Below are positions 22,496 to 45,726 of a DNA stretch of 64,000 nucleotides, one piece after another. The notes under the pieces are model-generated. The model did not search any database, had not been told where the DNA came from, and was given only the letters and a program-made list of their open reading frames with translations. The translations under genes and the position numbers were made by a program. How positions within the stretch are numbered: the first letter of the stretch is position 1; each line of letters begins with the position of its first letter. The DNA is from a virus (Duplodnaviria > Caudoviricetes): the IMG/VR virus record IMGVR_UViG_3300014656_000022, positions 1-64,000 of that record; one strand, written 5' to 3'.

Positions 22496-23716
22496 TTACA
22501 CACTGCGAAATAAAATAGGAGTAGCTCCTGCATATACATTCTCTACGAGTAGCTTCTCATCCTCATCTGGATCATAGTCTCCCAATAGTATCTCTCTTAC
22601 CTTATTGTCCTCTAGAGTACTTGGTTTATGTAAGTATATTTTATCAAATGGTTGATTAGCAACACCAATATTTTTAATTTCGTCTGAGGTTGACATGACT
22701 CTCTCCACTCCCTCATTGACAATAAAGTCCTCTGAGATATCAAGGTTATTAATATAATCAATCACATTTTGAGTAACTGCATTGATAATATTGTTCTTAT
22801 CTGTAGTAGATATAGCTCTCTTGAAGGTTAAGGTTCCTATGAGAGACATCCCTGTCTCTATTGGTCCCCGAACATTGGTTACAATCCCCTGTGCAGCAAC
22901 TTTAGAAACAGCTTCTGATACCATAGCAATTAGTGAATCAGAAACAGTAGGAGTTGAGGCCTTTACTAGGACATCAAACGATCCTATACCCTTGAAATAA
23001 GGAATGATTATTACATCTGATATACCGGGGACTACTAAGGCAGCTAGTCTCACAGCAATAAGATTAGCTTGTTCTGATGAGACTACTTGATTTGCTATGC
23101 GATAACGATAGTTTGCGGCTGATTCTATTCCTCGTCCAGAAGATATTTCAGATACGTTTCTTACTTTGAGAGAATCATTGAATGAGTCTACATAGTCTGT
23201 AAAGTCATGATATCTAAGCTGGTTTGCTCCAATATTGCTCGTGGTCCCAGTTCTGATTGCTTCTACTGAGACATATGCTTCACGAGAATCGAGTAAGAGA
23301 TATGTAGCATTTGTTACTCTAAACTGAAGACCAGTACCACTGGTCCCTGTAGAAATGATTTGTCCAGCGGGAATGAGGATAGAGCTTCCTCCATTAATGT
23401 CTCCAAAGTAACCTGTGTCTACATAGAATTGTACAACTTTCTGAGATGAGGTAGCACTAGCTGGGATTTCTCCTAACTGAGGAACACCCATCATTGCGCC
23501 AATATAGCTCAGATACCTTCCTTCTGCCCCGTTCAAGAAAGCTTGGACATAGTTCTGATCGAATTGAGACCAGAGTTTTCCAAGCTTCTTTGAAAAAGCC
23601 TGAGCAAAAGCTCTCGTCTTACTACCAGGAGATGTCCTAGTAATATTAGTATTATTTACTACATCATAGAGAATTTCCCCAAGGATTCTTTCTTCAGACA
23701 GAGCAAAGACTGGCAT
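22496..23716 (-). CDS. Baseplate J-like wedge protein (T4 gp6/P2 gpJ family)
   Basis: LSYIGAMMGVP...A.A.S...FRV...VEAIRTGTTSNIGA...SGRGIESAANYRYRI...VPGISDV...GSFDVLV: typical gpJ pattern. Confidence 0.9.
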   Translation of the reverse strand: MPVFALSEERILGEILYDVVNNTNITRTSPGSKTRAFAQAFSKKLGKLWSQFDQNYVQAFLNGAEGRYLSYIGAMMGVPQLGEIPASATSSQKVVQFYVDTGYFGDINGGSSILIPAGQIISTGTSGTGLQFRVTNATYLLLDSREAYVSVEAIRTGTTSNIGANQLRYHDFTDYVDSFNDSLKVRNVSEISSGRGIESAANYRYRIANQVVSSEQANLIAVRLAALVVPGISDVIIIPYFKGIGSFDVLVKASTPTVSDSLIAMVSEAVSKVAAQGIVTNVRGPIETGMSLIGTLTFKRAISTTDKNNIINAVTQNVIDYINNLDISEDFIVNEGVERVMSTSDEIKNIGVANQPFDKIYLHKPSTLEDNKVREILLGDYDPDEDEKLLVENVYAGATPILFRSV

Positions 23717-24557: not shown

Positions 24558-24964
24558 CTTGGCCACCCTCCACCGCTCAGCATTTTAAAATGATTATGAT
24601 CTATGTCATTCTCTTCTGCTTGTTTCTTAGAGAAAATCATTTCCTTTCCAAGGATTTCAACATAGTATACATGTCTGGCACTAACCTTCCCTGTCCAAAA
24701 TGCTCGACAAAACATTCCTGGTCTCAATTGACCCCATCTTCGAAAAACCTCATTGAGTTCTGGGACTACTGCGTGCCAAGCATTTTCTCCTCCTAGTAGT
24801 TCTTCTTTAGCTCCACCAAGAGGTTTTACTTGTACTTGGTTGTAATCGTTAACTTTTGCTACTAAACAATGAGTAATTCGTAGACCGATAGGATCTGGTT
24901 CTCCAGCTTTTGTGTTAACTGACTGAGAATGCTTCTGTTCAGGAGTTCTTGCTACGCCACCCAT
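24554..24964 (-). CDS. Putative baseplate spike OB-fold-like protein (136 aa)
   Basis: Follows the hub; beta-rich; placement where gp5/gpV N-domains normally lie. Family inferred from position only. Confidence 0.4.
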   Translation of the reverse strand: MGGVARTPEQKHSQSVNTKAGEPDPIGLRITHCLVAKVNDYNQVQVKPLGGAKEELLGGENAWHAVVPELNEVFRRWGQLRPGMFCRAFWTGKVSARHVYYVEILGKEMIFSKKQAEENDIDHNHFKMLSGGGWPR

Positions 24965-27900
24965 TATTTTACCCTGCCCTCCACATTACTTGCCCACCAG
25001 CTTCCTTGTGGAGCGAACCAATTATTTGGATCAATCGTATCATAGAAATGATCCAGATATAGAGGAGTGCTTTCATTGGCATCCTTAAACCATCTTCCTA
25101 TACCTTGAATCCAACTACCGTCATTTCTCTTAGTTGGAAGTCCTCCAATAAGAGGTTTCCCTTGGAGAACGAGTGGAGAATAATGGAATAGGTGAGCCAA
25201 TTGAGACCTACTTGTCAACTTTCTGAAAATGAATGTTCCAAGAAGACCATGAGTATTAATAGGATTCCCAACAGAGTTATCCACAGAGTCACTCATAGAA
25301 CTTGCCATACTAAGCGTAGAAAGCCCCATTCCACCTATAGGAGCAGTTACAACTGAGAGAACATCTCCCATGTGACTAGCAGCTGTTACTAATCCAGCTG
25401 TTAATGTATCTCCTTTTATATTCTTACTTACTTCACCAAGAGCCATTCTAGCTCCTGCTCCTCCCATTAAAGTAGCCCCAATTCCAGGAAGAGACTGCAT
25501 ATTAATCCCTTTCATTGCAGCCTCAGCTACGAGACCCATAACATCTTGTGTAGCCATGGTAACTATCTCATTGACGTGAATACACATAGCAGGAATAATT
25601 TCTGTAACAAATCCGTGTTGTTGAGAAAATCTATGAACAACTTGTTCTACCTCAACTGGGCCCCACATGTCGTTATACTCATCTGCGATATAGACAATAT
25701 CATATGGACGAATCTTAGGATTACCCATAAGGATAAGAGAACCTCTATATCCTTCTTTGAGGCTCTCTTTTAATAATGCAGTGCAATATCTCTTTGCCAT
25801 CTCCCAACCGACACAGTTTGGATATTGGGCAAAGATTTCTCTCTTTTCTTCATCTGGAATTCCAGCATCACACATGAGAGTAAATGTCTGAGCATCATCG
25901 AATTCAATTTGTCCAGTTTCTTCATTAACCTCTGCTCCATCGTCGTCATATTGAAGAGTAACTGTATTAAAAGTATTCCAAAAGGTGGAAGAGATTCTAT
26001 TATCGATAATGTTACAAGTGCTACTAGCTAAATGATAGGACCTAAAGGGCTTAATAATCCCTCTGTCTTTTGCATATAGTCTCACATTTCTCTCTGTCCA
26101 GATCTTGAGAAGTTCTTTATTTATACTCTCTGCCCGTACAAGGTCCTGAGAGATTTTAGCTCGTCTATCTGTCTCTCTTAAAATGGCTACAGCAGATCCA
26201 CCTCGTGCATCAGCAACAGCATTTTTAGTCGCTTCAGATGGTTCTTTATTTGGGTCTGTTGCCTCTGCTGCTACTTTAGCAGTCTCATCTTTAGAATTTG
26301 CTACCTGTTCCTTTAGTTGTTCTGCTTCAGACTTCTCTTCTGTAGTTGGATCCCGCGCAAAATAGAATTGGTCTGGAACCCCGAAGAACATAGTCATACG
26401 AGGTCCATATTCACCTTCATATGGGACAGGCCTACTAATCCATCCAGGATGCCTATATGTCATCTCCTGGAATACATCCCAAATAGTAGTGTTATACATG
26501 ACGAAAGGAACAGATCCACCATCGAACAATCCCAAGAGTCCTCTATTTCCAGTCGGAGCAAAGATATTGTCATCCTGTGGTTGTTTACTCCAAGTATATC
26601 TACTGGTAAGCAAACTTCTGAAAGTATCGCCAAGAGACCCTTCCCCTAATTCCCATCGACCAAAATGAGCTACTTCTGGGGCAGCTATTAAATTCTCTAA
26701 AATATCAGATGTCCTGCCAGATTTTGTATACCATCCACCAAACTCTTTTACATCTCCGTAGATATTTTGAGCTAGCTCGATTGCAAAGCTTTGACAGGTA
26801 ATTTGAACTAAATCTTCTGCACCTGAGAACTGAACATCTGTGATTACCCCATTAATAACTGTCTCTAACTCTTGAGGATTATTATTGAAACCAAGACGAA
26901 GTTGCATTTGAGTTCCAGGTTGAAGCATGAGAGAGGCTATATTGTTCTCTTTTAAAGGATCTTCTATAGCAAATTTTCCACCAGGGTCTCTAGCTCTCTC
27001 CTGATTAGCGTCTCCTTTAAACTTCCTATTTGAGAGGACTCCTGAGATGTTCGTTAGAGTAATCATTACCAAATCGGCAGGAATCTTTGAACTTTGAATG
27101 ACCTGTATGTCTACTACCTGACTATATGAATAGAAGTCATCAAAGGCATACTTTTTTCTTTCCCCCAAATCACTTTCGATAAAGTAGAGCTTAAATGTAG
27201 GATATGCACGCATGAGTGAATACCCCTGATCATTTATCATCTCCTTTTCAAATTGGTCGATACTACGAGTCAGGAGACTTTCATTAGCTGGATCTATATC
27301 ATTGACTGGGCCAAGAGATTTTAACTCAAAGCCTTGAAGAGCCAATTCTGGATCCATTGTATATTCGATATTATTCTTTCTAATTTCAAAATGAAGATGG
27401 GCACCGGCAGAATAGCCTGTATTCCCTACTAATCCTATAACCTCCCCTTGGCTAATAGGGAGAGGGTTTTGTCCAGCAAAAGACTCATTCCCTAGTTCTC
27501 CACCGTGAAAAAGAAGAGACAGTCTCTGAATATATGGTTCCCACTGCATATGTTTGTAGACAGTGTAATATCCATTTGGGTGCCTAATATGAACTTCTAC
27601 AGTTGTTTCTATTGGTTTATTTCCTATTTTGTCTCCAACCTTGTCGTTAGGATTCCTTTTGAATAAAGGGTCTCCCTCTCTATAGGTATGCTCACTTTGT
27701 TTGAAGTCCTTGGTAATGAATACAATTTCTCCATCAGCTGCAGCTCTGACCTGCATTTTCTTTGTTTCTTCTGCGCCTAAAGAATGAGCAATATCAATCC
27801 CACTATGAGGCTTGCTGGAAATACCGCCTCTGATTTCTTTATAATGAGAAGTAATCTTAGAAGTAGGTCTTGGAACATCAACAGGCCAAGCCCAGATTGG

Positions 27901-30900
27901 CATCTCACTTGCCTTTACAAGCTCTGTAGGTTGATAGTAGCTCTCCGGTTGACGGTTTAAACAATCAAGAGACATATTATGCTTACAGGCTCCAGCAGAT
28001 GGAGATGCAAGAGGTTGAGCTTGTTTTCTCCCGGCGCCAGTAATATTGTAGATATCTCTAGCCAGCTCAATAGCTGGAATTGTAATGGGGAGAAGGTCTC
28101 CTAATCCTGTTTGAAGTCTTGCGTAAACCGCAGAAGGGATTATCTCTCCATCAAAATCGTTTGGTTGAATCAATCCATTATCTTTCTCTGCCCGATTCTG
28201 AAGTTCTAATTCTAAGGCCTTAGTATCTTCTCTTTCCAGTCGTGCATCTTGTTTGAGCTTCTGGTCAGCTTGCATTAGACCCGTACCCCAAGTCCGAGTT
28301 ACCACATCCCCCCGAATTCGATTCTTTTTCTGCTGACCAAGAATCTTTTCTTCGTAGACACTTTCTAACCAACTCTTAGTTGCTTTGAGTCTCACATCTC
28401 CCTGTGATGTCTGAATTGCGTTCTTAGCAGCTTCAATGATGGACCCATCTACGATAGACCCTTTTATTTCTGCGGGGTTATAGAGATAGAAATCTGGTTG
28501 TATTAGAGCAGCAGCAGATAGATTCCTGAGACCTAAATTCTGCTTAGCAGCCATCTCTACAAGTGAGTCATTGAGTGTAGGATATTCAGCTTCTATGATA
28601 TCTAATATCCCGTCCATTGGAAAATCAGGATAGGCATTACCACCAGAAGATACACCAAAGTTATTGAGAGCATCTCTTATGTCTTTCATTTGGTCGAGCT
28701 GGATTAGACTAGACCTAAGAAGCTGAAGTAGAAAGTTATTAATCCAGTCATTCCAGTCAGCAAATGCAGCTGTCAGGAAGTCATATAAAAGAGGAGTATG
28801 TTCCTTACGAAAGGTGCTCCTAATTTCCTCTAGAGCCTTAGCTCTATCTCCGCTTATTGGTCCTGTAGCTTCTACATAGAGGTCAAGAATTTCTGGAGTC
28901 TGTCTAGCAGTTTCAAGAAGACCACTATCTCCTAAGAGAGCACTATTACCAAAAGCCCCAGGACCATATTCTGCCAGCTCAGCAAAAGCCTTGTCAGACC
29001 AGCTGAGTTCGGATTCTCCATTGGATCCCTTCTTTTGAAGAAAAGCAATATCATCTTGTGTCCCCTTGCTCTGAACAAAGACGTTGTATGTATCATCTTG
29101 GAATACATCTACTCCTATTACATCCTTGTTATCTAAGAGAAAAAGGCTAAATAGTCCTCCTAAAACAGATGAGAACTTATTCCCAGTTATACCTATATTA
29201 GTATTGAGTACATTCCATAATTCAGAAAGAGTAGTACCCATTTTGCTAGCAAGATACATACAGGTCTTCCATAGCATATAATCCTGTTTACTTTGCAATC
29301 CGTTGACCTTATAAACATCTGCTTTCTGATTAAAACGAAGTCTAGAAAACTCAGTGTCTGTACTCAAAAAACTGGGGACATCTGCTTCTATCGACGCTCG
29401 CGTTTTTATACTCAATCTTCCGTTCTCGTTTGTAACAGCACTCTTATCAAACTTGATATAGCTCATTAGCTTCTTAAATAAAAGTCTATGCACATCCCCT
29501 TTGCTAGTAATGGACTGTCCAGGAACTAATTGCTCGCGTGTGGAAGAAGTAACTGGATTATCTATTAGAGTTAAAACAGCAGAATAGGTTCCTGGTTGAC
29601 CCTTAACTGTATCTATAGAGATATTCTCAAGGATAAACTCTTGCAGTCCACATGCGTTTATTAAGTTATTTACAACATTTACGTTTCTCAATCCAACAGG
29701 GACTCGTCTAAACTTTCTAGCCGTATCCTCATACATAGAATAGAAGTTAGAAATAGATTTAATTGAACTCTCATGAGTTGTCATCAAAGAGATTGATACA
29801 ACCCCGTCTATACTCCCAATGTGTTGATATGTAGGATAGGGATGACCAAGGAGAGGTATTCTGGCAAGAGTATTATCAAATGAAATTGATATTCCTACTG
29901 GAATGAATCCAGCATCTTCCAAATTCAGAGGAACAGTTCTCTTCATGAGAACTTGGACAGGCTCTGTATGCACTCCTTCTGCAGGTTCTTTGAAAAGAGT
30001 ATCTATCCCTAGTTTACTTTCTACTATAGTAGGCTTACCAGTAGAATCCTGTATTGCTATGGGTGACCAGTCTTCACTCTGGTTCATGAGACTATCTAAT
30101 CCAGCTAATTCCTCCTCCCGCGCAGATAGAAGACCAGTTATAACTTTAGAGACTGAATCTGTATTAACATCTTCTCCCATAGATGTAGTTGACCCAAAGT
30201 CATCAGCCTTTAGGGGAATACCCTGTTTCTTTGCTTGTTTAGCTAATTCCTCTGCCATATCTGGAGCTACTCCAGACCATTCTGACCTACCACCTTCAAT
30301 ATCTTCTAATTGGTTGATTAGGGTTCTCAGAGTCTTTACATCTGCGTCAACCTTCTGATATCTCTTCCTGTCAAAGAGAGCAAATTCAGTTAGAGATAAC
30401 TCTGTCTTATTAGCTAATTGATAAGTGCGAATATATAGCTCTCTGTTACCAGACTTCCTTGCTTGCTCAGCCAGATAGAGAGTTCTCCATGCTCTACTAT
30501 CAGAAGGATCTAAAACAGGAATTGGGCTAAGTAGGTCTCTCTTGTATAGCCACTGTCTCATATAAGGTTGATAGTTGAACCAAACCGTGTTGAGGGATAA
30601 TTGAATTATATCTGTGCTATCTCCAACTTTTTGGATTTCCAATTGCTGGAGAGCAAGAACCATCTGGGTTTCTTGATTTCCGCCGAGAATAGAATTCCTA
30701 AGAAACTGGTTATCTACATACACAAAAGGAGTAACTCTAATTTGGCTAACAAAATCAGTTAGTTTAGGAAGGTCTTTTTCTACTAGATAAATAACTATAT
30801 GAACTCTAATCTCAGAGAACCCAGATCGAAGCTTCTGAGACGAACGAGTGCGTAGAGTTTGCCAAAAGTTATTATAGCTCTTTCTCTCTATATGTATCTG

Positions 30901-30957
30901 GTCAGGTGGGACAGTGAATGTTAGATCATTCAGCTTTAGAGTCCCTGTATCTGTCAC
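24964..30957 (-). CDS. Baseplate hub/tail lysin megaprotein with M23 zinc metallopeptidase
   Basis: HSGID (27793..27807, aa about 1051) and GNTGYSAGAHLHFEI (HLH at aa about 1187) are M23 HxxxD/HxH motifs; C-half has gp27/gp44 hub-like LRLGF...VINGVIT...ITCQS and GNPKIRPYD.VY..D.YNDM.G..EVEQVVH. Confidence 0.85.
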   Translation of the reverse strand: MTDTGTLKLNDLTFTVPPDQIHIERKSYNNFWQTLRTRSSQKLRSGFSEIRVHIVIYLVEKDLPKLTDFVSQIRVTPFVYVDNQFLRNSILGGNQETQMVLALQQLEIQKVGDSTDIIQLSLNTVWFNYQPYMRQWLYKRDLLSPIPVLDPSDSRAWRTLYLAEQARKSGNRELYIRTYQLANKTELSLTEFALFDRKRYQKVDADVKTLRTLINQLEDIEGGRSEWSGVAPDMAEELAKQAKKQGIPLKADDFGSTTSMGEDVNTDSVSKVITGLLSAREEELAGLDSLMNQSEDWSPIAIQDSTGKPTIVESKLGIDTLFKEPAEGVHTEPVQVLMKRTVPLNLEDAGFIPVGISISFDNTLARIPLLGHPYPTYQHIGSIDGVVSISLMTTHESSIKSISNFYSMYEDTARKFRRVPVGLRNVNVVNNLINACGLQEFILENISIDTVKGQPGTYSAVLTLIDNPVTSSTREQLVPGQSITSKGDVHRLLFKKLMSYIKFDKSAVTNENGRLSIKTRASIEADVPSFLSTDTEFSRLRFNQKADVYKVNGLQSKQDYMLWKTCMYLASKMGTTLSELWNVLNTNIGITGNKFSSVLGGLFSLFLLDNKDVIGVDVFQDDTYNVFVQSKGTQDDIAFLQKKGSNGESELSWSDKAFAELAEYGPGAFGNSALLGDSGLLETARQTPEILDLYVEATGPISGDRAKALEEIRSTFRKEHTPLLYDFLTAAFADWNDWINNFLLQLLRSSLIQLDQMKDIRDALNNFGVSSGGNAYPDFPMDGILDIIEAEYPTLNDSLVEMAAKQNLGLRNLSAAALIQPDFYLYNPAEIKGSIVDGSIIEAAKNAIQTSQGDVRLKATKSWLESVYEEKILGQQKKNRIRGDVVTRTWGTGLMQADQKLKQDARLEREDTKALELELQNRAEKDNGLIQPNDFDGEIIPSAVYARLQTGLGDLLPITIPAIELARDIYNITGAGRKQAQPLASPSAGACKHNMSLDCLNRQPESYYQPTELVKASEMPIWAWPVDVPRPTSKITSHYKEIRGGISSKPHSGIDIAHSLGAEETKKMQVRAAADGEIVFITKDFKQSEHTYREGDPLFKRNPNDKVGDKIGNKPIETTVEVHIRHPNGYYTVYKHMQWEPYIQRLSLLFHGGELGNESFAGQNPLPISQGEVIGLVGNTGYSAGAHLHFEIRKNNIEYTMDPELALQGFELKSLGPVNDIDPANESLLTRSIDQFEKEMINDQGYSLMRAYPTFKLYFIESDLGERKKYAFDDFYSYSQVVDIQVIQSSKIPADLVMITLTNISGVLSNRKFKGDANQERARDPGGKFAIEDPLKENNIASLMLQPGTQMQLRLGFNNNPQELETVINGVITDVQFSGAEDLVQITCQSFAIELAQNIYGDVKEFGGWYTKSGRTSDILENLIAAPEVAHFGRWELGEGSLGDTFRSLLTSRYTWSKQPQDDNIFAPTGNRGLLGLFDGGSVPFVMYNTTIWDVFQEMTYRHPGWISRPVPYEGEYGPRMTMFFGVPDQFYFARDPTTEEKSEAEQLKEQVANSKDETAKVAAEATDPNKEPSEATKNAVADARGGSAVAILRETDRRAKISQDLVRAESINKELLKIWTERNVRLYAKDRGIIKPFRSYHLASSTCNIIDNRISSTFWNTFNTVTLQYDDDGAEVNEETGQIEFDDAQTFTLMCDAGIPDEEKREIFAQYPNCVGWEMAKRYCTALLKESLKEGYRGSLILMGNPKIRPYDIVYIADEYNDMWGPVEVEQVVHRFSQQHGFVTEIIPAMCIHVNEIVTMATQDVMGLVAEAAMKGINMQSLPGIGATLMGGAGARMALGEVSKNIKGDTLTAGLVTAASHMGDVLSVVTAPIGGMGLSTLSMASSMSDSVDNSVGNPINTHGLLGTFIFRKLTSRSQLAHLFHYSPLVLQGKPLIGGLPTKRNDGSWIQGIGRWFKDANESTPLYLDHFYDTIDPNNWFAPQGSWWASNVEGRVK

Positions 30958-33900
30958 TTGAGTATCTCATTCCCCTTATAGTTATTTAGATTACCTGGTG
31001 CCCTACGAATATTTAGATTAACAGAGGAACGACCAGATGTCATTCTTCTGATTCGTTCAGAAAAATCAGATGTATTCATGGCATAGTTTCCAGCAGTTCT
31101 GACATCTACTTGGACAGAAGGTCTCATTATCCTTGCGCTATTTTGGTGCAACATAGGAGGAGCGGTTGGTTGACCAAGAGAATGTTCTGGAGCATGTATT
31201 ATGTCGTCGGGAGTCAAATTAGACTTCTTGTTATTCATTTTGATATTAGCTTTTAAACCTGACCCTGGACCAATAGAAGAAGGTGGGCTAGAAAGTGCAG
31301 TAGCTATTGCTAGAGACCCTGCAAATCCAAATCCAATAGCCTTATGGTGTTTGATGATAGACTCTCCAAACCCTCCTAAGATATTCCTCATTGTATTATA
31401 AGCTACACTAGATTTACTCATAGACCCTTCTACTGCCTTAAAGAAGCTAGGAAGTCTCTGTTTGGTTACTGTAGCTTGACCTCTCAGTAACTTAGCTGCT
31501 TCTGATGCCCCGCTGATATCAGCTTGCTTGAGACTTCTGACTACATTTCCCCATGTCTCCCCTAGTTCCATTCCTGGGATAGTTCGTCCTACTTTTACTC
31601 CACCTAGAGCTTTTTCAATTTCCTTGTAATTCTCTAGGACTAAATCTCCTTGAAGCATCTTTTGAGCATGAGGAGCACGCTGAAAGAGGCTCTCAATGGG
31701 AGCAATTCCTTGTTCTATATCTCTATTTCTGAGGGATTGAGCTAAGTCTCCTAGTTGCTCTCTAAATCCTCCAGAAAGAACCTGCTCAGCTCTCAAGTGC
31801 TTTGCAGCTATTGGTTCTTGTTCGAGTGTATATAATAATTGTTGAGCATTAGCCAGTTCTTGGCCTTTGAGATGCTGTAGAACAGCTTGACGCGCTGCAG
31901 TAATCTCTGTAGATAAACGTGGAACGAATTCCTGAACAGTCCCTAACTTAGCGACATCAGCTAACATTTTCTCTTCTATGTTCAGAATGGTCATACCACC
32001 CTGACCCTTAGGTTTAAATATCTGAGTCCTAACCTGATTTTGAACCCACCTGGTAGTATATTCATCAGCTGTCTGTTGGGTCTGTTTGAATATCTTTTGC
32101 TCTAAATCGGGAGATACGAGCTTAACAGCTACTTGGTCTGCATCATAGTCTCCAGCCATGTTTACCATGAGGCCCAATTTGATAGCCTTATCTGATAAAC
32201 CTTGGATTCTGGCATTGACTGGAATCGAAGACACCAGTGCAACAGGCTCGTGGAGGCCAGGGATGACCTGTAGACGTGCTGGTTGAAACGAATGGGGGTG
32301 GACTATAGGGTGACGCCATCCAAGGCCTCCTACAGGCTTTCCTTGAAGAAGTTCCTCAGCCATTGTTTCAAAGCCTTTCTGAGTCCCGTACAGCTCTCTT
32401 CCTTCTTCTATTAGTTGCTTAGCTATTTCTTCAGAGATTCCAATGACATTTGATTCTCTTAGTAAGGAAGCTCCAAGAGCTTCTCCTGGCTTTCCAGCCA
32501 TTAGAAATCTGGTAGCTAGAAGCTTGTCTCCCTTACCTCCTAGGAGTCTTCCTATACCCTTTCCAGCAGGTGCAGCATGTTTGACCAGCTTAGATATAGC
32601 AGTATTGATTTCATTCCTCATCGCTACAGGAGAAGTTCCTACTACATCTGTATACATCCCCGCACCTTTTTGAGCTAAGGACGCATATATATTAGTTAGT
32701 TCACTAGCTACTATCTTCCCACCGGCAGTCTTATATGGTCGCATTCCCTCCAGATGAGTCACACTTGGAACCCAAATGTCTTTAAACTCTCCTCCTAAAC
32801 GTAGTGCTCCTCCCTCTGGACCTAGTCCTTCCATCCAGGCCTTGAATCCAGCTCTTCTGTAGCCTATACCCTTTACATCGAATGAGGATAAGCCAGTAGG
32901 GACTTCTCCTGTTTGAAAGGACCTCAGAGATTGCATCAGAGATTGGTGTATTGCTAGGCGCTGAGGATTTGTTTGTGCCCCCGTTAGAAGAAGGTCCTTT
33001 GCAAGCTCTTCTCCTAGTTGGCCAAAACCTCCTCCTGCAAGCATTTCATATGCCCGGGGTTCAATAGAAGCCAACTTCCCTGAACCTAGAAGCTCTTTTG
33101 TCCTTCCATAGAATGGTTGAGCCATACCAATAGGTATCCCTGTTTCCATACCTGTAACAAGAGTACTGGGAAGTCTCGTTCTTCTTAGGAGAGTTTCATA
33201 TTCTTTACCTTCTAAAGCTTCTGGAACAGCACCAAATATCTTTCCAAATTCGGCTGGAGAAGGTTCAGCAGATCTAGTCATAGCCATTAGCTGTGTAATG
33301 AGATTAACATGACGCAGTGGCCCCTCTCCTGCAGCTCTCTCGAATAAGCGCATAGTGTGAACTGGACGCTTCCAGAACATTTCTTGAGCTGGAGTGAGAT
33401 TCATTTGTTTACTCAAGAAGTTCTCTAGAGCAGTCATCATTTGCTTGTTATGTAACCCTCTGTTTTTCTTGAGAGTGTCCATATCAGCAACTATTCTAAT
33501 ACCCCGTTCTATTGCTTCGTCTTTCCATTCTGGAATAGTCGCCAATCCACTTTCTATTGCCCCTTGAGGAACAAAATGAAATCCAGCTCTTAGGTCTCCA
33601 AAGAACTTCTCAAATGCTGTCATCTCATGTCTTCTGCGGACAGAGAGTGTGGCAAACTCTCCCTTACCCTTATCCCAAAAAGGAGTTACTCCCAAGATTT
33701 CTTCTTTAAGCGGATCTGGCACATTATATGGAACCCCCTTGGTAGTCATTCCTAAAAAGGTTCCTGGAGTTAATTTATTCCCTTCTTGAAGCTGTTTGAG
33801 AGCTTCCATATTTGCTGTAGCTAAATGAATAGATGCAGTACTCTGCTGTCCTAGAGCTGCTGTTACATTCTTACTTGCAAGAACTGCTCCATCTCCGATT

Positions 33901-35393
33901 CCCATTCTCTCCATTTGCATGGCATACTTCTTTTCGCTTATGTAGGCTGTCCTCAAGTGAGGAGGCATAGCTTCTTTAGTCCAATGAGCTTCTCTTTCCA
34001 TCCCCGTAGGAAGATGTCTAGAATAGAATGCAGCTCTATGTTCTCCCGGAATAAATTTCTCAGACCAAGCATATTTCTTAGCTGCTTCAGCAGCTTCAGG
34101 AGTTAACCCCCATTCTCGTAAGCTCTGCTCTACACGTCTGCTTACATCTGCTGCTCCTGGAGTTGGCTGCCATCTTCTCATTTGGACTTCTGGGCCCATG
34201 ACTATACCTTTAGCTATATCTACAGGAGAAGTCCCTGGTTGTAGACCACCAACTCTCATTGCTTCTAGAAGCTCTTCTCCTACAGCAGGTTCATGTCCGG
34301 GTTTGTAAACAAATTTCCCCAATTGGGGAGCTACACTTCGTTTCATAACAACCTGAACTGCTCCTCCACGAGTCTTCTGATAACTTGCAAGAACTGGATC
34401 ATAGATGTTAGCTGGAAGGTTAGGCATAGTTTCCAGTTTATGAAGCCATTCTGTACGAAGAGAACTAATAGCTTGTTGTAAATCCATTCCTCTGAGTCTT
34501 CCACTCTTCATTGCAGGAACTATTTGTTCAGCGAATTCACGCATGACAAATTCGTGTCTAGTCATCGTGGACAGAGAACGTGCTTCTGGGTCCCAGATAG
34601 CCATAGCAGGAGAAATGTACTTAGTACGAAGAGTCTTACCCTCTAAGAAAACTCCTTCAGATGTAAGAGGAAGCATTAAGCTAGCTCCCTCTTGAGCCCA
34701 GTTGAACTTGAGAACTTTATGTCCGGGGAAATCGGGACGTGTATACTCCATTACTGTTCCAGTCTTACCTAACTCATTAGCTATATTGTCATATACGGTT
34801 CTAATTTCAGAAGGGAGAGCTTCTGTCCCCAGAGGAAGAGCTTCTGTCCCCAGGAGAGTCCCAGACCATCTTCTCTTTTGAAATGGAGTTAGGACTGGCA
34901 CCTGTCCTGCAATTCCAAAATGTTTGGTAGATGCAGCTACATTACTCTGAAAATGTCTGAGTACCTTCTGAACTCCAAAAGATTGTCCATGAACATGAAG
35001 AGCTTTTTGGAGAGATCCTTCTATATCTGCACCGGCAGATCTCATCTTCTGAGTTACAGAGGCTAACTTCTTGGCAGTAATAGGATCAGCAAATCTTATT
35101 GCCTGGTCCCATGCTCCTTGAACGAGCTTAGGAATCTCCCCGGAAGGAACTCTTTCTTGTGTCAGAGATGTACTGAGGCCCCTTATATAATCTAGATGTC
35201 CTTGAATCGGAAGATCTGGAACAGCTGTGATTCCAGCTTGTCTTGCAGCTATAGCTATAGGGTTCTCAGCAACAGCAGATACACCAGTAAATGGTCTGGA
35301 CTTAGCAAACTTATATCCTGCATATGCAGTAGTTCCTGCTATAGGTGCTCCTATAATAGCAGCTGATAGAAAACTATTATTTTTCTCTGCCAT
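30954..35393 (-). CDS. Putative single-chain two-barrel RNA polymerase, virion-associated, with hydrophobic termini (1479 aa)
   Basis: beta'-like GWRHPIVHPHSFQ (R1027) and MVNMAGDYDADQVAV (D1082/D1084/D1086, nt 32136..32150); beta-like GIGDGAVLASKNV (D501), ATLSVRRRHEMTAFEKFFGDLRAG (K596/R602), GIRIVADMDTLKKNRG. Motif alignment by eye. Confidence 0.72.
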   Translation of the reverse strand: MAEKNNSFLSAAIIGAPIAGTTAYAGYKFAKSRPFTGVSAVAENPIAIAARQAGITAVPDLPIQGHLDYIRGLSTSLTQERVPSGEIPKLVQGAWDQAIRFADPITAKKLASVTQKMRSAGADIEGSLQKALHVHGQSFGVQKVLRHFQSNVAASTKHFGIAGQVPVLTPFQKRRWSGTLLGTEALPLGTEALPSEIRTVYDNIANELGKTGTVMEYTRPDFPGHKVLKFNWAQEGASLMLPLTSEGVFLEGKTLRTKYISPAMAIWDPEARSLSTMTRHEFVMREFAEQIVPAMKSGRLRGMDLQQAISSLRTEWLHKLETMPNLPANIYDPVLASYQKTRGGAVQVVMKRSVAPQLGKFVYKPGHEPAVGEELLEAMRVGGLQPGTSPVDIAKGIVMGPEVQMRRWQPTPGAADVSRRVEQSLREWGLTPEAAEAAKKYAWSEKFIPGEHRAAFYSRHLPTGMEREAHWTKEAMPPHLRTAYISEKKYAMQMERMGIGDGAVLASKNVTAALGQQSTASIHLATANMEALKQLQEGNKLTPGTFLGMTTKGVPYNVPDPLKEEILGVTPFWDKGKGEFATLSVRRRHEMTAFEKFFGDLRAGFHFVPQGAIESGLATIPEWKDEAIERGIRIVADMDTLKKNRGLHNKQMMTALENFLSKQMNLTPAQEMFWKRPVHTMRLFERAAGEGPLRHVNLITQLMAMTRSAEPSPAEFGKIFGAVPEALEGKEYETLLRRTRLPSTLVTGMETGIPIGMAQPFYGRTKELLGSGKLASIEPRAYEMLAGGGFGQLGEELAKDLLLTGAQTNPQRLAIHQSLMQSLRSFQTGEVPTGLSSFDVKGIGYRRAGFKAWMEGLGPEGGALRLGGEFKDIWVPSVTHLEGMRPYKTAGGKIVASELTNIYASLAQKGAGMYTDVVGTSPVAMRNEINTAISKLVKHAAPAGKGIGRLLGGKGDKLLATRFLMAGKPGEALGASLLRESNVIGISEEIAKQLIEEGRELYGTQKGFETMAEELLQGKPVGGLGWRHPIVHPHSFQPARLQVIPGLHEPVALVSSIPVNARIQGLSDKAIKLGLMVNMAGDYDADQVAVKLVSPDLEQKIFKQTQQTADEYTTRWVQNQVRTQIFKPKGQGGMTILNIEEKMLADVAKLGTVQEFVPRLSTEITAARQAVLQHLKGQELANAQQLLYTLEQEPIAAKHLRAEQVLSGGFREQLGDLAQSLRNRDIEQGIAPIESLFQRAPHAQKMLQGDLVLENYKEIEKALGGVKVGRTIPGMELGETWGNVVRSLKQADISGASEAAKLLRGQATVTKQRLPSFFKAVEGSMSKSSVAYNTMRNILGGFGESIIKHHKAIGFGFAGSLAIATALSSPPSSIGPGSGLKANIKMNNKKSNLTPDDIIHAPEHSLGQPTAPPMLHQNSARIMRPSVQVDVRTAGNYAMNTSDFSERIRRMTSGRSSVNLNIRRAPGNLNNYKGNEILK
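34813..34854. repeat. 21-bp tandem duplication (LGTEALP x2)
   Basis: gggagagcttctgtccccaga / ggaagagcttctgtccccagg, 19 of 21 identical, in frame. Confidence 0.9.
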
Positions 35394-38300
35394 AATCTTC
35401 CTGATGATCTATATTAACTACTAGACCACCATTTCCCCATGTGGTCCGTGTAAAGATAGATGCTTTCATTTGATTAGCCATAAGTAACTCATCTATTCTA
35501 CTTCTCATTTCATCTGCTGATAAGTCTGGAGGGTTTAATACTTCTTCTACAGCTTCTTCGTTAATATAAGGCTTGTTCATGAGAGTTTGAGCTTGAGAAG
35601 GCCATAGATTATAATCATGTTGGTCCTCTCCAAGACTTTGAACTACTTTGAGCTTTAAATCTTCGAGATCAACAGATGGATGCCAACCAACAAAGTCCAT
35701 TCCTGGAAGAGGTATATTTGGTAGAATCTTTGTCCTTCTATACCAATCTCCATACTTTTCGTCAGACAATCTGGTTTCTATGAACTCCCCCATTTCCTTC
35801 TTGGATGAAGGGTATCCTTCTACTTTAGCTTCAGAGTATATCTGCTCTACATATTCGCTTGCTTCACTAAGCTGGTCTTCCGTTAATAAATTAGCTTTCT
35901 CTGCTCTTCTTACGTCATCTGCAAAGGCTAATTGCCATCTAGCTATGTATAGTGCTTTCTCGTTCTCTGGGACCATTTGAAGGATACGAGCCCTTTCTTC
36001 TCCTGATTCAGCTTCTGCGAAAGCATTAAAGTAATCTCTTTCCCGCCGTGGGAGAGATCTAAAGATAGAACTATAGTTCCTCGTATATGGATTGATCCCA
36101 AATAGAGTTTCATCCTTCTTAGATTCAAATTCTTTTGTAGCTTTTGTATCTTCTGCCAGACGGGCAATATTAGCTAGGCGTGAGTATTTGACATATTTGA
36201 GAACATCAAAATACTCCTCTAATTCTCTCCTACTTTGAATGTGTCCAGGAACTCCTTTGAATCCAAGAGATGCAGCAGTTAGATAAGCAGATGGTCTAAC
36301 GAAGTGAGTGTATGGATGTTGCCAGAATGCACTTTGTGTCCCATATAATTGCTCTCTTTCATAGCTTTCAATAGCTGTTCTCTCATGAACTAACTTTGCA
36401 CCAGGAGAAACAGGAGTCATCTGATCCAACGCTGTCTCTGCATTGTGAGACAACAGTTCCCAGTATCCTCCAAATAGCTTTTTAAAGAGTCCTGGTTCTT
36501 CTACTCCAGCTTTCTTTATTTCATTGAGCTGGGTAAGAAGACTGCTTGATTCCTCGCTAGATCTTTTAATTCCCCCCGTTGGGGAAAGATATTGGTATTC
36601 TCTAAATTCCTTTCTCTGTTTCTTAGCCTTTATCTGTTCTAGGGTCTGTTGAAAGAGATTCTCTTCATAATCTGTCCAGTCTCTTCTCTTTCTAGCAGCT
36701 CTAACCATAGATAGGTGTTTTCCATACTTTTCACTATATGGAGCTACATCAGCTAGGATTTTCCAACGATGAATTAATGGATATTTGCTTGGTTCAATCC
36801 CCTCTAACTCTGGATAACGTGCCTCATATCCGACTCCTGGAAGCCTTAACTCACCTTCGGGGACCTTGGCCCAAGGATCTCCTGTTCTAAAGTCAGGCGA
36901 CTTATCTCCAGCTCCTGGAAGCCATTCTGCGGCCATATTAGGAATTGGGTTATATAAAGGAATTTGGCGACGACGGTGGGGGAAGAAACGTCTCCAAGCT
37001 TCTGTCGCACCAAGGCCACCACCTATCTCTAGGTCCCAATACTCTCTTTCATATCCTGCAATTCTACGCGCACTCTCTAATTGCATTTCTTGGTCAAACA
37101 AGTCAGGGGTGCCAGTTAGAGCTTCTTTAATAGAAGTTGCAGTAAAGCCAAAAAGTCCTGCCATTTCTGTCATTCGATATACCTGTTCTCCAATAGTTCC
37201 CTTAATTCCAAATGGAGTAACAGGAGGAGGACCTGGTTGTTCTCCTATTTCTGTAGCAATACGTTGTCCATATCTGGGAGATGGGGCTATTACTCCGCCT
37301 TCCGTTCTCCAATCTTCTTCGTGCATATACACAGGAGGTTTGATTACTCTACCAAGAGTATTGGCTAAGATAGGTCCAATGAGCGGTACGTCTTCAAATG
37401 GCGAGCTGGAAACTGGATATGGCCGATCTTGATAGTGTCTCTGTTCTAATTCATAGGTAAATTCTTTCTTCCAGAATTTTTCTAGAGGCGAAATAGTTCC
37501 TTCTTCTCGTCCCCAGATACCTTTCTCTCTGGCCCTCATGAGCATTCTGGGAAACCAATGTGGACGAAAATAAGTTTCATTACTGTTGTGAAGCGTAAAA
37601 CCTGGACTAAGAAAGCTTTCATCTTCCTCTACCTGAAAGTCATAAACAATGCCTTCATAATGTTCTTGAAAGATAGAATGTATTGAAATTGCAAATCCAC
37701 CATCTACTTCAGTATATCCATACTGTCGCTCTGGCAGTTTGGTTATTTCTCCAACTTTCAGTAACTTAAGTGGTATTACCTGATTAAGTAAGTAAGTACT
37801 TGTCTTTGGTATTCTAAGCTCTTGGACTAAATACCCTTTTTGGGTTTTAGTTATTTTTCCAAGAGCAGCAAATATGTGCAACCTTGATAATAAAAGTTGC
37901 ATCTGTCTCAGTAGAGGACAAGGATGCATCCCTATTCGAATTGCATTATCTCTAATAGATCCATCCCCTTTAATAACACCTTCCAGGAAACCAAGGATAA
38001 ATCCGTTCGGAGCATCAAAAATTTCTGGATTTAGACGTTTTGTACCTTCTTTTGCTAAACCGGGTACAAGCCACTTTATTAGTTTTGCTACCAAAGAGCT
38101 ATACAGTATAACTTCAATACCATTCTTACTAGTAGAATGTGTGTAGATTTTGAGACCAAATAGTCTCTTTGCTAAATCTTGTAAAGTATCGACATATTCT
38201 TTTTCTTCCCGATGTAATGCAAATGTGATTCGTCTACTAGTTACACTTCCTTCAGCAGCATAAAATCCACAAAATAAACCAAGGGAATAGTCCAGTGACA

Positions 38301-40524
38301 ATATAGGCAAAAGATTATCTGGGACAAGTCTTTTACGAAATAAAAGCCCTTGTTTTTTATGCTTACGAATATCTGCTAGCCTATATCTAATTTGTGAATA
38401 CGTCAGATTATATTTTTCTTGTAAATATAACAGTTTCTCTTTTCTAGATTTGCTTTTAGGGGAAAACTGACCCCACTCTAGAATCTCTAAATCAGCTTCT
38501 AGACCTTTGCAGTCCTTAAAAGGCCTAAACCATCTACCATTTAAAAACGTAAAACCAGAAATACGTTCTAGATCGACTGTCTTAGTAATCTCACGAGGAG
38601 AATAATATGGCATAAATAGTCTGTATCTTCCATCTTTCTTTATAGACGAGCTTGGCATCCACATTTTTTGTGGCTTGGTTTTGTCTAGCTTAAAATAATA
38701 TGGACAATAGACAACTAGTAACTGATGGTTTCCGGTAATACTTGTTAATGCTTCCTGTCCATAACTTGTACTAAATTTGTAAACTTGTTCGTTTACTTCT
38801 CTAGTAAAAACCTTAAGAACACGGACAGATCTCCCCTTCTTGTTTAAGAGTTTATGTCCAGGTCGTATTAATTCAGCGTTTTCCAAAGTGCCATCTGATA
38901 ATATTAAACAAGCCTGTTTTGTTAGACATCCTTCAAACGCAGATCGTCCCGCTTCCCACCATCTACCACGCCTAACAGCAATTTCTTGCCTACCTGAATA
39001 AATATCTTCCAATTCTTCTGGACTCTTCTCAGGTATTAATGCGCCTGGTAGAAATGGGGCAACTAGAGCTAATCCTGCTAGTGCTCCCCCAATTGCAGCT
39101 AGCTTAGTTGGGCCTAATTTCCACCCCAATTTTCTAAAAGCTAATTGCTCTCCTCCTTCAACTATTGGCTCAAATAATCTTCTCCAAGCTTTTCCTAGAG
39201 TATCAGAACGATAGTAGAGACTCTCTGGACCTGCTAGAGCCATCTTTCTCATAGTCCTGGAAGCTATATTCTTTCCAGTTCCAAATTCTCTTGCAGATAG
39301 CTCAGCTACTGTTAGGGCTTCATGGGCTGACATACCTCTAGCCTGAAGAGTTGTCATCTGTACGAGCTTGGCTCCATATGCAATTCCTCCAGCTCCAAGG
39401 GCTCCCATTAGAGGAAAAGCTAGCAGCTTTTGAAGAGAAGTACTACCTGGAGCTACTTCTTCTTGAAACTCTCTATATCTCTGTAGACCTGATATTTGAG
39501 CTATACGTGAAGCAGCTATATTAGCTTTCACTCCAGCTGTAGCTATTCCAGCAGTAATCCCCTCATCCAGAATAGTGCCAGAGAGAGTGTCAGACCTTCT
39601 TACGGCCCAATCCAACATCTGGTAGCCCATATAAGCAGCAGGTAAGGCAATGCCAAACTTGCCCACCATTCGGGCAAACATTTCTCCACCAGTGCCAGAT
39701 TTAACAGCTAATTTAGGAAGGTACTTTGCTCCCGGAAGGCCCTCTATAAGTCCATAGGGCATTTCCAGTAGACGGTTGAAACGACCTACAAGCTCAGTTC
39801 CTAAGGCTCCAGCCCATCTACCTGTATAACCTAACCTCGTCTGAGCACCAATAATCTGAGAAGGTAATCCTTCGATGAGAGGATTTAGAATATTGGGCTT
39901 ATCGAAGAAAGGTTGTCTAAAGGTAAAGATATGCTGTGGAGAAGGAATTTTGGCTCCTAATCCTACTGTCCACCCAGCTCCTACCCATGAACTGGTAGTT
40001 AAGGATTTGCCTAAGGGGTCCCATACAGAAAGAGGAGTTCTGATAGCACTAGCATAACGTAGAGCTACTTCTTCTCCCTGGCCCCAAAAGAGTCTTCCTC
40101 CTCTTAGGGTAACTCCTTCTCTTTGTAGTCTAGCTTTACTAAGTAAATCTAAAGAATGAATATAATCTGTAAGATGGACATTCTTCCTAAACATAGAGGG
40201 AGAAACGTGAGTCCCTCTTTGAACTGCACTTTCAAACTGAGAAAAGAAGTTTGAAAGCTGAAAGGTTCTAAGAACGCCTCCTGGAGAATAAGATTCTATT
40301 CCTCTGAGACTAGCTACATACTTATCCCAGACTCTCCCACTCTTCGTAGGAATCCATCCAGCGGCTAGAACTCCTCCTGTAATCAGTCCAGCTGTGAGAA
40401 TATTGTTTGTAGATTCTTCGTAAAAGTTACGAGGCTGTCCTGTTAGGTATGATTGCTGAGTTTGAGTAGAAAGGGAAGGAGAATAGTAGCTCCTTAATTG
40501 ATTAGAAGATAGAAAAGTAGGCAT
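35377..40524 (-). CDS. Tape-measure/ejection-type protein containing an intein (1715 aa; 1267 aa after splicing)
   Basis: Follows tail chaperones; several Ala/Gly-rich hydrophobic segments in N-third; helical C-terminus; intein at aa 533-980. Confidence 0.7.
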   Translation of the reverse strand: MPTFLSSNQLRSYYSPSLSTQTQQSYLTGQPRNFYEESTNNILTAGLITGGVLAAGWIPTKSGRVWDKYVASLRGIESYSPGGVLRTFQLSNFFSQFESAVQRGTHVSPSMFRKNVHLTDYIHSLDLLSKARLQREGVTLRGGRLFWGQGEEVALRYASAIRTPLSVWDPLGKSLTTSSWVGAGWTVGLGAKIPSPQHIFTFRQPFFDKPNILNPLIEGLPSQIIGAQTRLGYTGRWAGALGTELVGRFNRLLEMPYGLIEGLPGAKYLPKLAVKSGTGGEMFARMVGKFGIALPAAYMGYQMLDWAVRRSDTLSGTILDEGITAGIATAGVKANIAASRIAQISGLQRYREFQEEVAPGSTSLQKLLAFPLMGALGAGGIAYGAKLVQMTTLQARGMSAHEALTVAELSAREFGTGKNIASRTMRKMALAGPESLYYRSDTLGKAWRRLFEPIVEGGEQLAFRKLGWKLGPTKLAAIGGALAGLALVAPFLPGALIPEKSPEELEDIYSGRQEIAVRRGRWWEAGRSAFEGCLTKQACLILSDGTLENAELIRPGHKLLNKKGRSVRVLKVFTREVNEQVYKFSTSYGQEALTSITGNHQLLVVYCPYYFKLDKTKPQKMWMPSSSIKKDGRYRLFMPYYSPREITKTVDLERISGFTFLNGRWFRPFKDCKGLEADLEILEWGQFSPKSKSRKEKLLYLQEKYNLTYSQIRYRLADIRKHKKQGLLFRKRLVPDNLLPILSLDYSLGLFCGFYAAEGSVTSRRITFALHREEKEYVDTLQDLAKRLFGLKIYTHSTSKNGIEVILYSSLVAKLIKWLVPGLAKEGTKRLNPEIFDAPNGFILGFLEGVIKGDGSIRDNAIRIGMHPCPLLRQMQLLLSRLHIFAALGKITKTQKGYLVQELRIPKTSTYLLNQVIPLKLLKVGEITKLPERQYGYTEVDGGFAISIHSIFQEHYEGIVYDFQVEEDESFLSPGFTLHNSNETYFRPHWFPRMLMRAREKGIWGREEGTISPLEKFWKKEFTYELEQRHYQDRPYPVSSSPFEDVPLIGPILANTLGRVIKPPVYMHEEDWRTEGGVIAPSPRYGQRIATEIGEQPGPPPVTPFGIKGTIGEQVYRMTEMAGLFGFTATSIKEALTGTPDLFDQEMQLESARRIAGYEREYWDLEIGGGLGATEAWRRFFPHRRRQIPLYNPIPNMAAEWLPGAGDKSPDFRTGDPWAKVPEGELRLPGVGYEARYPELEGIEPSKYPLIHRWKILADVAPYSEKYGKHLSMVRAARKRRDWTDYEENLFQQTLEQIKAKKQRKEFREYQYLSPTGGIKRSSEESSSLLTQLNEIKKAGVEEPGLFKKLFGGYWELLSHNAETALDQMTPVSPGAKLVHERTAIESYEREQLYGTQSAFWQHPYTHFVRPSAYLTAASLGFKGVPGHIQSRRELEEYFDVLKYVKYSRLANIARLAEDTKATKEFESKKDETLFGINPYTRNYSSIFRSLPRRERDYFNAFAEAESGEERARILQMVPENEKALYIARWQLAFADDVRRAEKANLLTEDQLSEASEYVEQIYSEAKVEGYPSSKKEMGEFIETRLSDEKYGDWYRRTKILPNIPLPGMDFVGWHPSVDLEDLKLKVVQSLGEDQHDYNLWPSQAQTLMNKPYINEEAVEEVLNPPDLSADEMRSRIDELLMANQMKASIFTRTTWGNGGLVVNIDHQEDYGREK
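37585..38928 (-). mobile_element. Intein with LAGLIDADG homing endonuclease (448 aa)
   Basis: AFEG|CLTKQA...GNHQLL...VYDFQVEEDESFLSPGFTLHN|S; LAGLIDADG helices GFYAAEG and GVIKGDG. Confidence 0.95.
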
Positions 40525-40525
40525 A

Positions 40526-41437: not shown

Positions 41438-41439
41438 TG

Positions 41440-41850: not shown

Positions 41851-41858
41851 AACCTCTC

Positions 41859-44987: not shown

Positions 44988-44991
44988 TATG

Positions 44992-45017: not shown

Positions 45018-45023
45018 AAGAAA

Positions 45024-45716: not shown

Positions 45717-45726
45717 TTATTCCTCC

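Follow-up and report, generated by a model that had tools for sequence, protein, structure and literature searches.

The gene at positions 30954 to 35393 (minus strand) of the analysed viral DNA encodes a protein, P0001, whose predicted structure and conserved residues point to a single-chain RNA polymerase (RNAP) with two double-psi barrels, lying inside the tail module. The DNA, hereafter the window, is the 64,000-nucleotide stretch at positions 1 to 64,000 of IMG/VR record IMGVR_UViG_3300014656_000022 (Duplodnaviria; Caudoviricetes), i.e., 64 kb of a 73.5-kb contig with a CheckV completeness of 39%. To judge from the model, P0001 almost certainly has the two-barrel polymerase fold with an intact active site, and from its conserved residues it is very likely to be active as a polymerase. 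Delivery by the virion is somewhat favoured; it is argued from gene position, from a C-terminal module common with a virion protein verified by mass spectrometry, and from analogy. Our preferred reading, which we consider probable, is that P0001 is an active single-chain DNA-dependent two-barrel RNAP, carried in the particle and injected to start phage transcription. The original prediction, made from the sequence alone, had read the gene as a single-chain two-barrel polymerase, and this is supported by a confident model, two structure searches, and a DxDxD motif that is invariant in 115 homologues.

The core of P0001 (residues 440-1300) was modelled with AlphaFold2 using 52 homologues, with a predicted local distance difference test (pLDDT) of 88.5 and a predicted template modelling score (pTM) of 0.86; the N-terminal model (residues 1-480) has pLDDT 80.4. 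Models were compared with the PDB by Foldseek and with 48,161 representative chains by VIA-align. The structural matches of the core model in both listings are RNA polymerases. Foldseek yields 309 PDB matches at E<=1e-3, and among the matches listed the top ones are all bacterial beta' subunits (E 5e-6, probability 1.0). The best VIA-align match is QDE-1 (7y7p_A, Z 13.1, root-mean-square deviation (rmsd) 3.8, 322 residues, model 37-861), followed at Z 9.5-10.8 by Pol I A190, archaeal A', RDR2 (Z 10.5), P74-26 gp62 (Z 10.4), and the largest subunits of vaccinia, Pol II, and African swine fever virus; gp96 of phage P23-45 (8h2n_A) is matched with Z 10.0 and rmsd 3.9 over 286 residues at 15% identity. 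When the 1000 best Foldseek matches were realigned, 832 of 994 chains had Z>=8, and the 50 listed are all QDE-1 or RNAP largest subunits.

The first barrel region (model 14-333, residues 453-772) matches second-largest subunits, namely AR9 7s00_C (Z 9.4), phiKZ 7ogp_C (Z 8.7), Pol I A135 4c2m_B (Z 8.5), and Xanthomonas beta 6j9e_C (Z 8.3), while the isolated double-psi barrels 7dbo_B and 7dww_A match model 521-655 (Z 8.2, rmsd 1.9). Given these matches to second-largest and largest subunits, both barrels are therefore present in the model, in the order beta-like, then beta'-like, which is that of the single-chain members (PMC10770324). Alignments with largest subunits begin at their residue 12-26 (model 385-389) and run to model 851-861, and model 370-507 is matched by 3qqc_A, a clamp domain from archaea (Z 7.6); hence, the connector of ~350 residues seems to include a clamp-like part. 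For residues 193-438, the best non-helical matches are lobe regions of second-largest RNAP subunits (Z 5.6-6.3, 167-208 residues): vaccinia Rpo132 6rfl_B (Z 6.3, 208 aligned), AR9 7s00_c (Z 6.3), Xanthomonas beta 6j9e_C (Z 5.9), and plastid beta 8qma_A (Z 5.6). Although Z is only moderate here, chance is an unlikely explanation for four polymerase subunits among the eleven best of 48,161 chains.

The gene and the domain map of its product are as follows.

30954..35393, minus strand: polymerase gene (P0001), an uninterrupted open reading frame (ORF), 1479 residues, 161 kDa, isoelectric point (pI) 9.6
35220..35393, minus strand: N-terminus, residues 1-58, with a Gly/Ala-rich hydrophobic stretch at residues 8-30; pLDDT <60, hydrophobicity kept in the family consensus
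34902..35219, minus strand: helical bundle, residues 59-164, without a specific structural relative
34080..34817, minus strand: lobe-like alpha/beta domain, residues 193-438, resembling the N-terminal lobe of second-largest RNAP subunits
33411..33956, minus strand: beta-like double-psi barrel (DPBB-B), residues 480-661, with [E/D]501-G502, K596, K/R602, K643, and Q651
33588..33608, minus strand: KFFGDLR, with both basic residues of the beta-like barrel (K596...R602); family consensus KxFGxxK
33441..33485, minus strand: DMDTLKKNRGLHNKQ, residues 637-651, a conserved stretch with which the beta-like barrel ends; K643 in 113/115, Q651 in 110/115
32529..33410, minus strand: helical connector and clamp-like region, residues 662-955; pLDDT mostly >85, invariant E778-P779-R780
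32118..32525, minus strand: beta'-like double-psi barrel (DPBB-A), residues 957-1092; matched by bacterial beta' (Foldseek) and by isolated double-psi barrel domains
32283..32315, minus strand: RHPIVHPHSFQ with R1027, P1029, S1035, and Q1037; R-x-P-x5-[G/S]-x-Q spacing as in beta' NRAPTLHRLGIQ
32136..32150, minus strand: DYDAD, D1082/D1084/D1086, predicted metal-binding loop; Asp in 115/115, placed by hhalign on beta' NADFDGD 460-464
31872..31979, minus strand: bridge-helix candidate, residues 1139-1174, a 36-residue helix (model H700-735) with pLDDT >90; by topology only
31797..31829, minus strand: trigger-loop candidate TLEQEPIAAKH, helix end and loop, with invariant E1191 and K1198; by topology only
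30957..31496, minus strand: basic tail, residues 1300-1479, pI 10.9, with a Gly/Ala-rich hydrophobic stretch at residues 1353-1372; carries the C-terminal module common with gp146 of Bacillus phage 0305phi8-36

In the core model, K596, K/R602, and K643 lie on strands of the first barrel, and D1082/D1084/D1086 in a loop between the last strands of the second. The helix of residues 1139-1174 is followed by a helix and a loop with E1191, K1198, and H1199; these are assigned as bridge helix and trigger loop by topology. The beta-like barrel has a beta-rich insert of ~90 residues (with invariant G548) where beta carries the flap. The labels "flap-like" and "trigger-loop" given earlier to GNKLTPGTFLG (538-548) and TLEQEPIAAKH (H1199) fit the predicted topology, as candidates. 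All the motifs from which the polymerase was first recognised are found exactly at the residues assigned to them, including also GIGDGA (D501), KFFGDLR (K596/R602), DMDTLKKNRGLHNKQ (637-651), RHPIVHPHSFQ (R1027), and DYDAD (1082-1086). The protein as a whole is basic, with Gly/Ala-rich hydrophobic stretches near both ends.

The P0001 family comprises 184 clusters at 50% identity, 119 of them with E<1e-30 (phmmer with residues 250-1400 against 1.84 billion cluster representatives), and nearly all full-length members have 1430-1590 residues. Conservation was counted in an alignment of 115 full-length homologues, 20-42% identical to P0001 (~25% being typical). D1082, D1084, D1086, P1029, E1191, K1198, G548, R780, and P876 are found in 115/115 sequences, and near-invariant are G502 (114), R1027 and K643 (113 each), K596 and Q651 (110 each), and H1199 (105). 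Position 501 is Glu in 68 and Asp in 22 sequences. Position 602 is Lys in 105/115 and Arg in 6/115; the Lys-to-Arg change singled out by the original prediction is present in P0001 as R602, and is a minor variant of a few members in a family that mostly has Lys. The original prediction had also named two computable findings that would speak against it, a predicted structure without double-psi barrels and a DxDxD motif not conserved among homologues; both barrels were recovered by two independent structure searches, and each of the three Asp is invariant. With such high column counts across 115 homologues, these are far more than chance motifs, and the invariant Asp triad, together with near-invariant Lys residues, R1027, K1198, and H1199 at ~25% identity, therefore indicates selection on catalysis. 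A search with the family in 185,579 prokaryote genomes found no relative, therefore giving no prophage copy and no clue to the host.

The expectation that the gene is unannotated holds: P0001 has no sequence match in Pfam, PHROGs, NCBIfam, or the PDB. Neither the whole protein nor its N- and C-terminal pieces match Pfam, PHROGs, or NCBIfam; in Pfam and NCBIfam there is no match at E<=1, and the curated beta'/beta domain models (RNA_pol_Rpb1 type) are unmatched by P0001. The sole result among PDB sequences, searched with phmmer and with the family profile, is a chance OTU match (E 1.3). A tblastn search of 50,697 phage records yields nothing, the ESM Atlas one unnamed cluster at 0.88, below a useful level, and in the literature searched we found no published description of the family. 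The family is annotated as hypothetical wherever found, since it is invisible to Pfam, PHROGs, and NCBIfam, though widespread.

Profile comparison with hhalign aligns residues 879-1075 of the family with residues 256-469 of E. coli beta' (E 7.9e-4, probability 25%), and places the family AGDxDAD on NADFDGD and GKGxGGLxRGxxxGSR on KGKQGRFRQNLLGKR; the latter stretch corresponds to the connector motif GKGxGxLxxGxxxxxxxxR. The putative equivalence of R1027 with beta' R425 is motif-based, the hhalign alignment being shifted in this stretch. Nothing is seen with E. coli beta, nor with 0305phi8-36 gp145 and Moorella phage MTATph1 CDS0027. For P23-45 gp96 residues 1-1200, the gp96 C-terminus, and gp64, the probability is 0.1-0.2%, with sensitivity limited by the single-sequence templates.

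The P0001 gene starts with ATG, has AGGAAG 4 nt upstream, and overlaps the last 17 nt of the upstream gene; M1 is kept in >=90% of homologues. Its TGA stop overlaps the GTG start of the downstream gene (GTGA). Judged by these overlaps, P0001 is translationally coupled to the flanking tail genes. The large genes of the window are all on the minus strand and all structural; those that define the setting, and the counterpart of P0001 in 0305phi8-36, are listed here.

35377..40524, minus strand: upstream neighbour, 1715 residues, homologue of ME3_35 (Acinetobacter phage vB_AbaM_ME3) and 0305phi8-36 gp145 (BLASTP E 4e-53), overlapping the polymerase start by 17 nt
24964..30957, minus strand: downstream neighbour, 1997 residues, M23 peptidase, baseplate-hub-like (ME3 hub E 1e-31; 0305phi8-36 gp147)
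45727..47604, minus strand: tail sheath (phrog_16991, E 3.5e-71)
22496..23716, minus strand: baseplate wedge (gp6/J-like), downstream end of the tail module (phrog_6, E 1.9e-36)
L015:9812-17425: 0305phi8-36 gp146, the tape-measure-slot protein

The tail is contractile, because a sheath gene is present, and the setting proposed from the sequence is borne out, with sheath, tube paralogues, hub, and baseplate wedge all surrounding the P0001 gene. The more precise placement "between tape measure and hub" holds on the hub side; on the other side, the upstream gene is a homologue of gp145 and ME3_35, not an annotated tape measure, and P0001 itself occupies the gp146 slot, the usual place of a tape measure gene, behind the tail chaperones and ahead of the hub. 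The upstream protein has three transmembrane-like segments. The gene order is kept in 13/13 IMG/VR contigs: a gene for ~320 residues, one for 1174-2123, the polymerase (1425-1564), the hub (1915-2035), and, further on, the wedge (~410).

One of these relatives is a complete genome of 188,653 bp with terminal repeats and a single family copy, which encodes DnaE, ribonucleotide reductase (RNR), and a ClpB-like ATPase. No Pfam match to multisubunit RNAP (PF00623, PF00562) or sigma-70 is found in it, with positive controls, and the PF00623 and PF00562 searches were equally empty for the phage of the window and for other relatives; a search for T7-type RNAP (PF00940) gives no match either, but its control also matched nowhere, so this says little. 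Among its ORFs of >=400 residues, a few others have a DxDxD string, none in a polymerase-like context among those scanned, and the large plus-strand ORFs scanned are ClpB-like, RNR, DnaE, and similar.

According to the record annotation, gp146 ("hypothetical tape measure protein") of the jumbo myovirus 0305phi8-36 sits between gp145 and gp147, and all three are found in virions by mass spectrometry. Residues 1314-1467 of the family hidden Markov model match gp146 2374-2519 (hmmsearch E 4.5e-9, 5-sequence search), and hhalign gives a probability of 73% (E 3e-5) for the C-terminal module. The two share only the last ~150 residues, with a hydrophobic segment and an ...N.N..D.RS..N motif; outside its C-terminus, gp146 has no match to the polymerase profile, and it has no DxDxD. 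The module may be a common docking module for whatever fills the slot. Both neighbours of P0001 have homologues among the virion proteins of 0305phi8-36 and ME3, which supports a virion role.

The mechanism that we propose starts from the order of domains along the chain: a lobe-like N-terminal domain would be followed by the beta-like barrel, giving K596, K/R602, and K643, by the helical connector with its clamp-like part, by the beta'-like barrel, which would hold Mg2+ on D1082/D1084/D1086, and by a long bridge-type helix and a trigger-type loop (K1198/H1199). P0001 would be made late, coupled in translation to the tail genes, and its short C-terminal module would place it in the lumen of the tail or baseplate. 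Tail contraction would eject it ahead of, or with, the DNA, and the ejected enzyme would transcribe the first phage genes without the host enzyme. Tail- or virion-borne two-barrel polymerases are known to start infection in P23-45 and crAss-like phi14:2 (PMC10770324; bioRxiv 10.1101/2020.03.07.982082).

Several points weigh against this proposal. The main difficulty is that a folded 161-kDa enzyme with a clamp-like domain would be hard to pass through the tail tube; the authors of the P23-45 study link the flat, clamp-less shape of gp96 to tail passage (PMC10770324), and this shape seems inapplicable to P0001. The best single-chain structural match, QDE-1, is an RNA-dependent enzyme, which bears on template preference. 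Residue 602 of P0001 is Arg where the large majority of members have Lys. Finally, no promoter motif was found, the exact 8-11-mers of the complete relative giving no repeated intergenic motif.

The closest known case by function and location is P23-45 gp96 (also in P74-26, G20c, and TSP4), a virion two-barrel RNAP fused to the tail tape measure (PMC10770324; PDB 8H2M/8H2N). In gp96 as in P0001, one chain carries both barrels, the beta-like one first, behind ~470-480 residues; both genes lie where the tail module encodes its tape measure, and a metallopeptidase and hydrophobic segments are found in the same apparatus. The differences are as follows. No sequence relation to gp96 or gp64 is detectable by hhalign. 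P0001 is a separate 1479-residue gene product with ~180 residues after the core, whereas gp96 forms the head of a 5002-residue tape measure; for P0001, the M23 peptidase is in the next gene and not, as for gp96, in the same chain; and its phage has a contractile tail, P23-45 a siphovirus one. The inter-barrel connector is ~300 residues longer than that of gp96 and is confidently folded, and it seems to include a clamp-like part, while gp96 is clamp-less and flat. A second, non-virion paralogue was not found in the complete relative, unlike in P23-45. The P0001 family hence falls outside gp96 membership on sequence homology, on the long tape-measure fusion, and, tentatively, on the flat architecture. 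The "distinct" virion transcription system that had been anticipated has to be qualified: with P23-45 gp96, a two-barrel virion polymerase associated with the tail was already known (PMC10770324), and what stands is a stand-alone variant, unrelated to it in sequence, in phages with contractile tails.

P0001 resembles QDE-1, RDR2, YonO, and phi14:2 gp66 in carrying both barrels on one chain. No chain listed matches the model better overall than QDE-1 (Z 13.1, rmsd 3.8-4.2, 322-348 aligned, both barrels spanned); QDE-1 and RDR2 are eukaryotic RNA-silencing enzymes, unlike the phage-encoded P0001. The virion-delivered gp66 of crAss-like phi14:2 is flanked by giant virion proteins, just as the neighbours of P0001 are giants. 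Neither gp66 (PDB 6VR4) nor YonO is among the structural matches listed for the P0001 model.

The second half of P0001 aligns with multisubunit largest subunits over 300-364 residues (model 385-861), clamp N-terminus included, which is about as many as, or more than, with QDE-1 over the whole model. P0001 would be colinear with cellular beta (lobe, barrel) and then beta' (clamp N-terminus, barrel, bridge helix, trigger loop), and beta' is the only group with a sequence-level signal to the family, covering the GKxGRxR...GKR motif and NADFDGD. On the other hand, P0001 is one 161-kDa chain, whereas multisubunit RNAPs have two subunits of ~150 kDa each plus alpha and omega, and there is only the ~90-residue insert where cellular beta has the flap.

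A more specific reading, possible though on the whole doubtful, is that P0001 is a miniature fused beta-beta' polymerase near the cellular and jumbo-phage multisubunit lineage, and not of the YonO/QDE-1 type. It would have replaced the ruler of the tape-measure-slot protein in a ~190-kb myovirus lineage, and would be clamp-bearing, tail-delivered, and the phage's only transcriptase. In this reading, it would have kept the beta lobe, an insert at the flap position, the beta' clamp N-terminus, and the GKxGRxR motif. As to the two major clades of Chaban et al., the signals are split, QDE-1 being the best single-chain match, while the sequence signal and the longer second-half alignments point to cellular-type largest subunits.

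It is rather unlikely that P0001 is an active RNAP that stays unpackaged, i.e., a non-virion enzyme for middle or late genes whose tail location is incidental. Fold and catalytic residues would be the same as for a packaged enzyme, P23-45 and jumbo phages do have non-virion polymerases, and P0001 is the sole polymerase-like gene detected in the complete relative, so that it might serve later stages too. However, the gene is fixed between two genes for virion proteins in all 13 loci and appears translationally coupled to them, its C-terminal module is common with a virion protein of the same slot, and a polymerase produced only together with the late tail proteins could not initiate its own expression.

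Unlikely, too, is that P0001 acts as a tail-lumen or pilot protein, its polymerase core serving genome pulling, replication priming, or QDE-1-like RNA-templated synthesis. The RNA-dependent QDE-1 and plant RDR2 are among its best structural matches, the tape-measure slot and the hydrophobic segments at both ends would suit such a role, and for P23-45 a coupling of transcription with DNA translocation has been proposed (PMC10770324). Nevertheless, the characterised superfamily members from phages that appear in PMC10770324 and PMC7824862 (gp96, gp64, gp66, and the jumbo-phage RNAPs) are all DNA-dependent transcriptases, and the conserved region of bridge-helix and trigger-loop type fits processive transcription; moreover, early transcription and genome pulling are compatible with each other.

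That P0001 is an inactivated polymerase relic, now a structural tape-measure-like protein, is very improbable: it does stand where 0305phi8-36 has its putative tape measure gp146, it shares the C-terminus of that protein, and 0305phi8-36 lacks DxDxD in this slot, but the catalytic residues are kept throughout the diverged family, and residues 59-1300 are predicted as compact alpha/beta domains and not as an extended helical ruler. An ordinary second tape measure was likewise rejected, P0001 being globular with conserved catalytic residues. Thus, P0001 and gp146 have the same slot and a common C-terminal module, yet P0001 has no long helical ruler and gp146 no DxDxD. A YonO-like polymerase of 0305phi8-36 exists under another accession, ABS83659.1 (PMC7824862).

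If P0001 is a packaged transcriptase, as we prefer to read it, its family extends the virion-RNAP strategy to contractile-tailed phages of ~190 kb. What sets the family apart is that it has no sequence in common with known cases, is encoded by a stand-alone gene in the tape-measure slot, and apparently keeps the clamp. To our knowledge, virion-delivered two-barrel RNAPs are documented for a few phage groups only: jumbo phages phiKZ/AR9, crAss-like phages (gp66), and P23-45 (gp96). The family raises the mechanical question of how a folded 161-kDa enzyme exits through the tail tube, and it gives comparisons of minimal RNAPs a further compact representative, possibly colinear with beta and beta'. 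A possible culturable test system is gene ME3_36 of Acinetobacter phage vB_AbaM_ME3.

L016:7280-12091: ME3_36, "hypothetical protein", 1603 residues, in the same slot as P0001

ME3_36 carries GGDHDQDQAAV (MMGGDHDQDQAAV) at residue 1217. The second-best viral structural match of the polymerase model in BFVD is the model of an uncharacterised ME3 protein (modelled in two parts, of 801 and 802 residues and thus 1603 together; E 7.3e-10, 745 columns), which, judged by length alone, would be ME3_36. By sequence, ME3_36 shows no significant match to the family (BLASTP E 0.08; profile E ~1e-4 in a 5-sequence search), and phmmer against 150 members finds nothing significant either. ME3_36 may thus be a cultured remote relative of the polymerase family, a lead to which its DxDxD context, its slot, its length, and the match in BFVD point.

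Further viral matches of the polymerase model in BFVD span E 8e-9 to 4e-4. The ME3 protein A0A172Q0S6 (798 residues) also resembles the model, which hints at a second ME3 polymerase; a scan of the record outside 39001-58000 found a single ORF of this length (224456-226876), which lacks DxDxD and a profile match. Other matches are A0A8S5SD80, a "minor tail protein" of Siphoviridae sp. ctnpt50 (E 7.8e-9), and A0A075BUT7 and A0A7J4, giant proteins of Microcystis phages MaMV-DC and Ma-LMM01. Judging by such predicted structures, tail-associated polymerases may be commoner than the literature says.

The phage of the window is present in groundwater metagenomes of several studies. In a groundwater metatranscriptome, nine short contigs fall on the three giant genes (24964-40524) with identities of at least 95% (at least 99% for eight of them), and four of the nine touch the polymerase gene; these may be DNA carry-over and are not counted as evidence of expression.

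The neighbouring structural genes have several features of their own. The gp145-like protein contains an intein with a LAGLIDADG endonuclease (about residues 533-975), which splits the sequence after ...RWWEAGRSAFEG; relatives without the intein have 1174-1361 residues, and versions of 1628-2123 residues occur in some lineages. Three tail tube paralogues stand in a row after the sheath (41859-42644, 42645-44987, and 45024-45716, minus strand) and match phrog_9206, a family with the label "major head protein"; tube and sheath paralogues also occur in 0305phi8-36. Extra regions of the size of an insert are seen in the tube paralogue 42645-44987 and in the portal and large terminase (55965-59534 and 62623-63999 / L001:2623-5754), all on the minus strand, and match PHROGs of helicases, terminases, primases, or thymidylate synthases, like inteins. 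In the complete relative, inteins are also found in several replication genes (DnaE, RNR, and an AAA ATPase). This phage lineage is unusually intein-rich, even in structural genes. In the baseplate/fibre region, two ORFs of 188 and 182 residues (11757-12323 and 12196-12744, minus strand) overlap by 128 nt in different frames and may be a frameshift pair or have a miscalled start.

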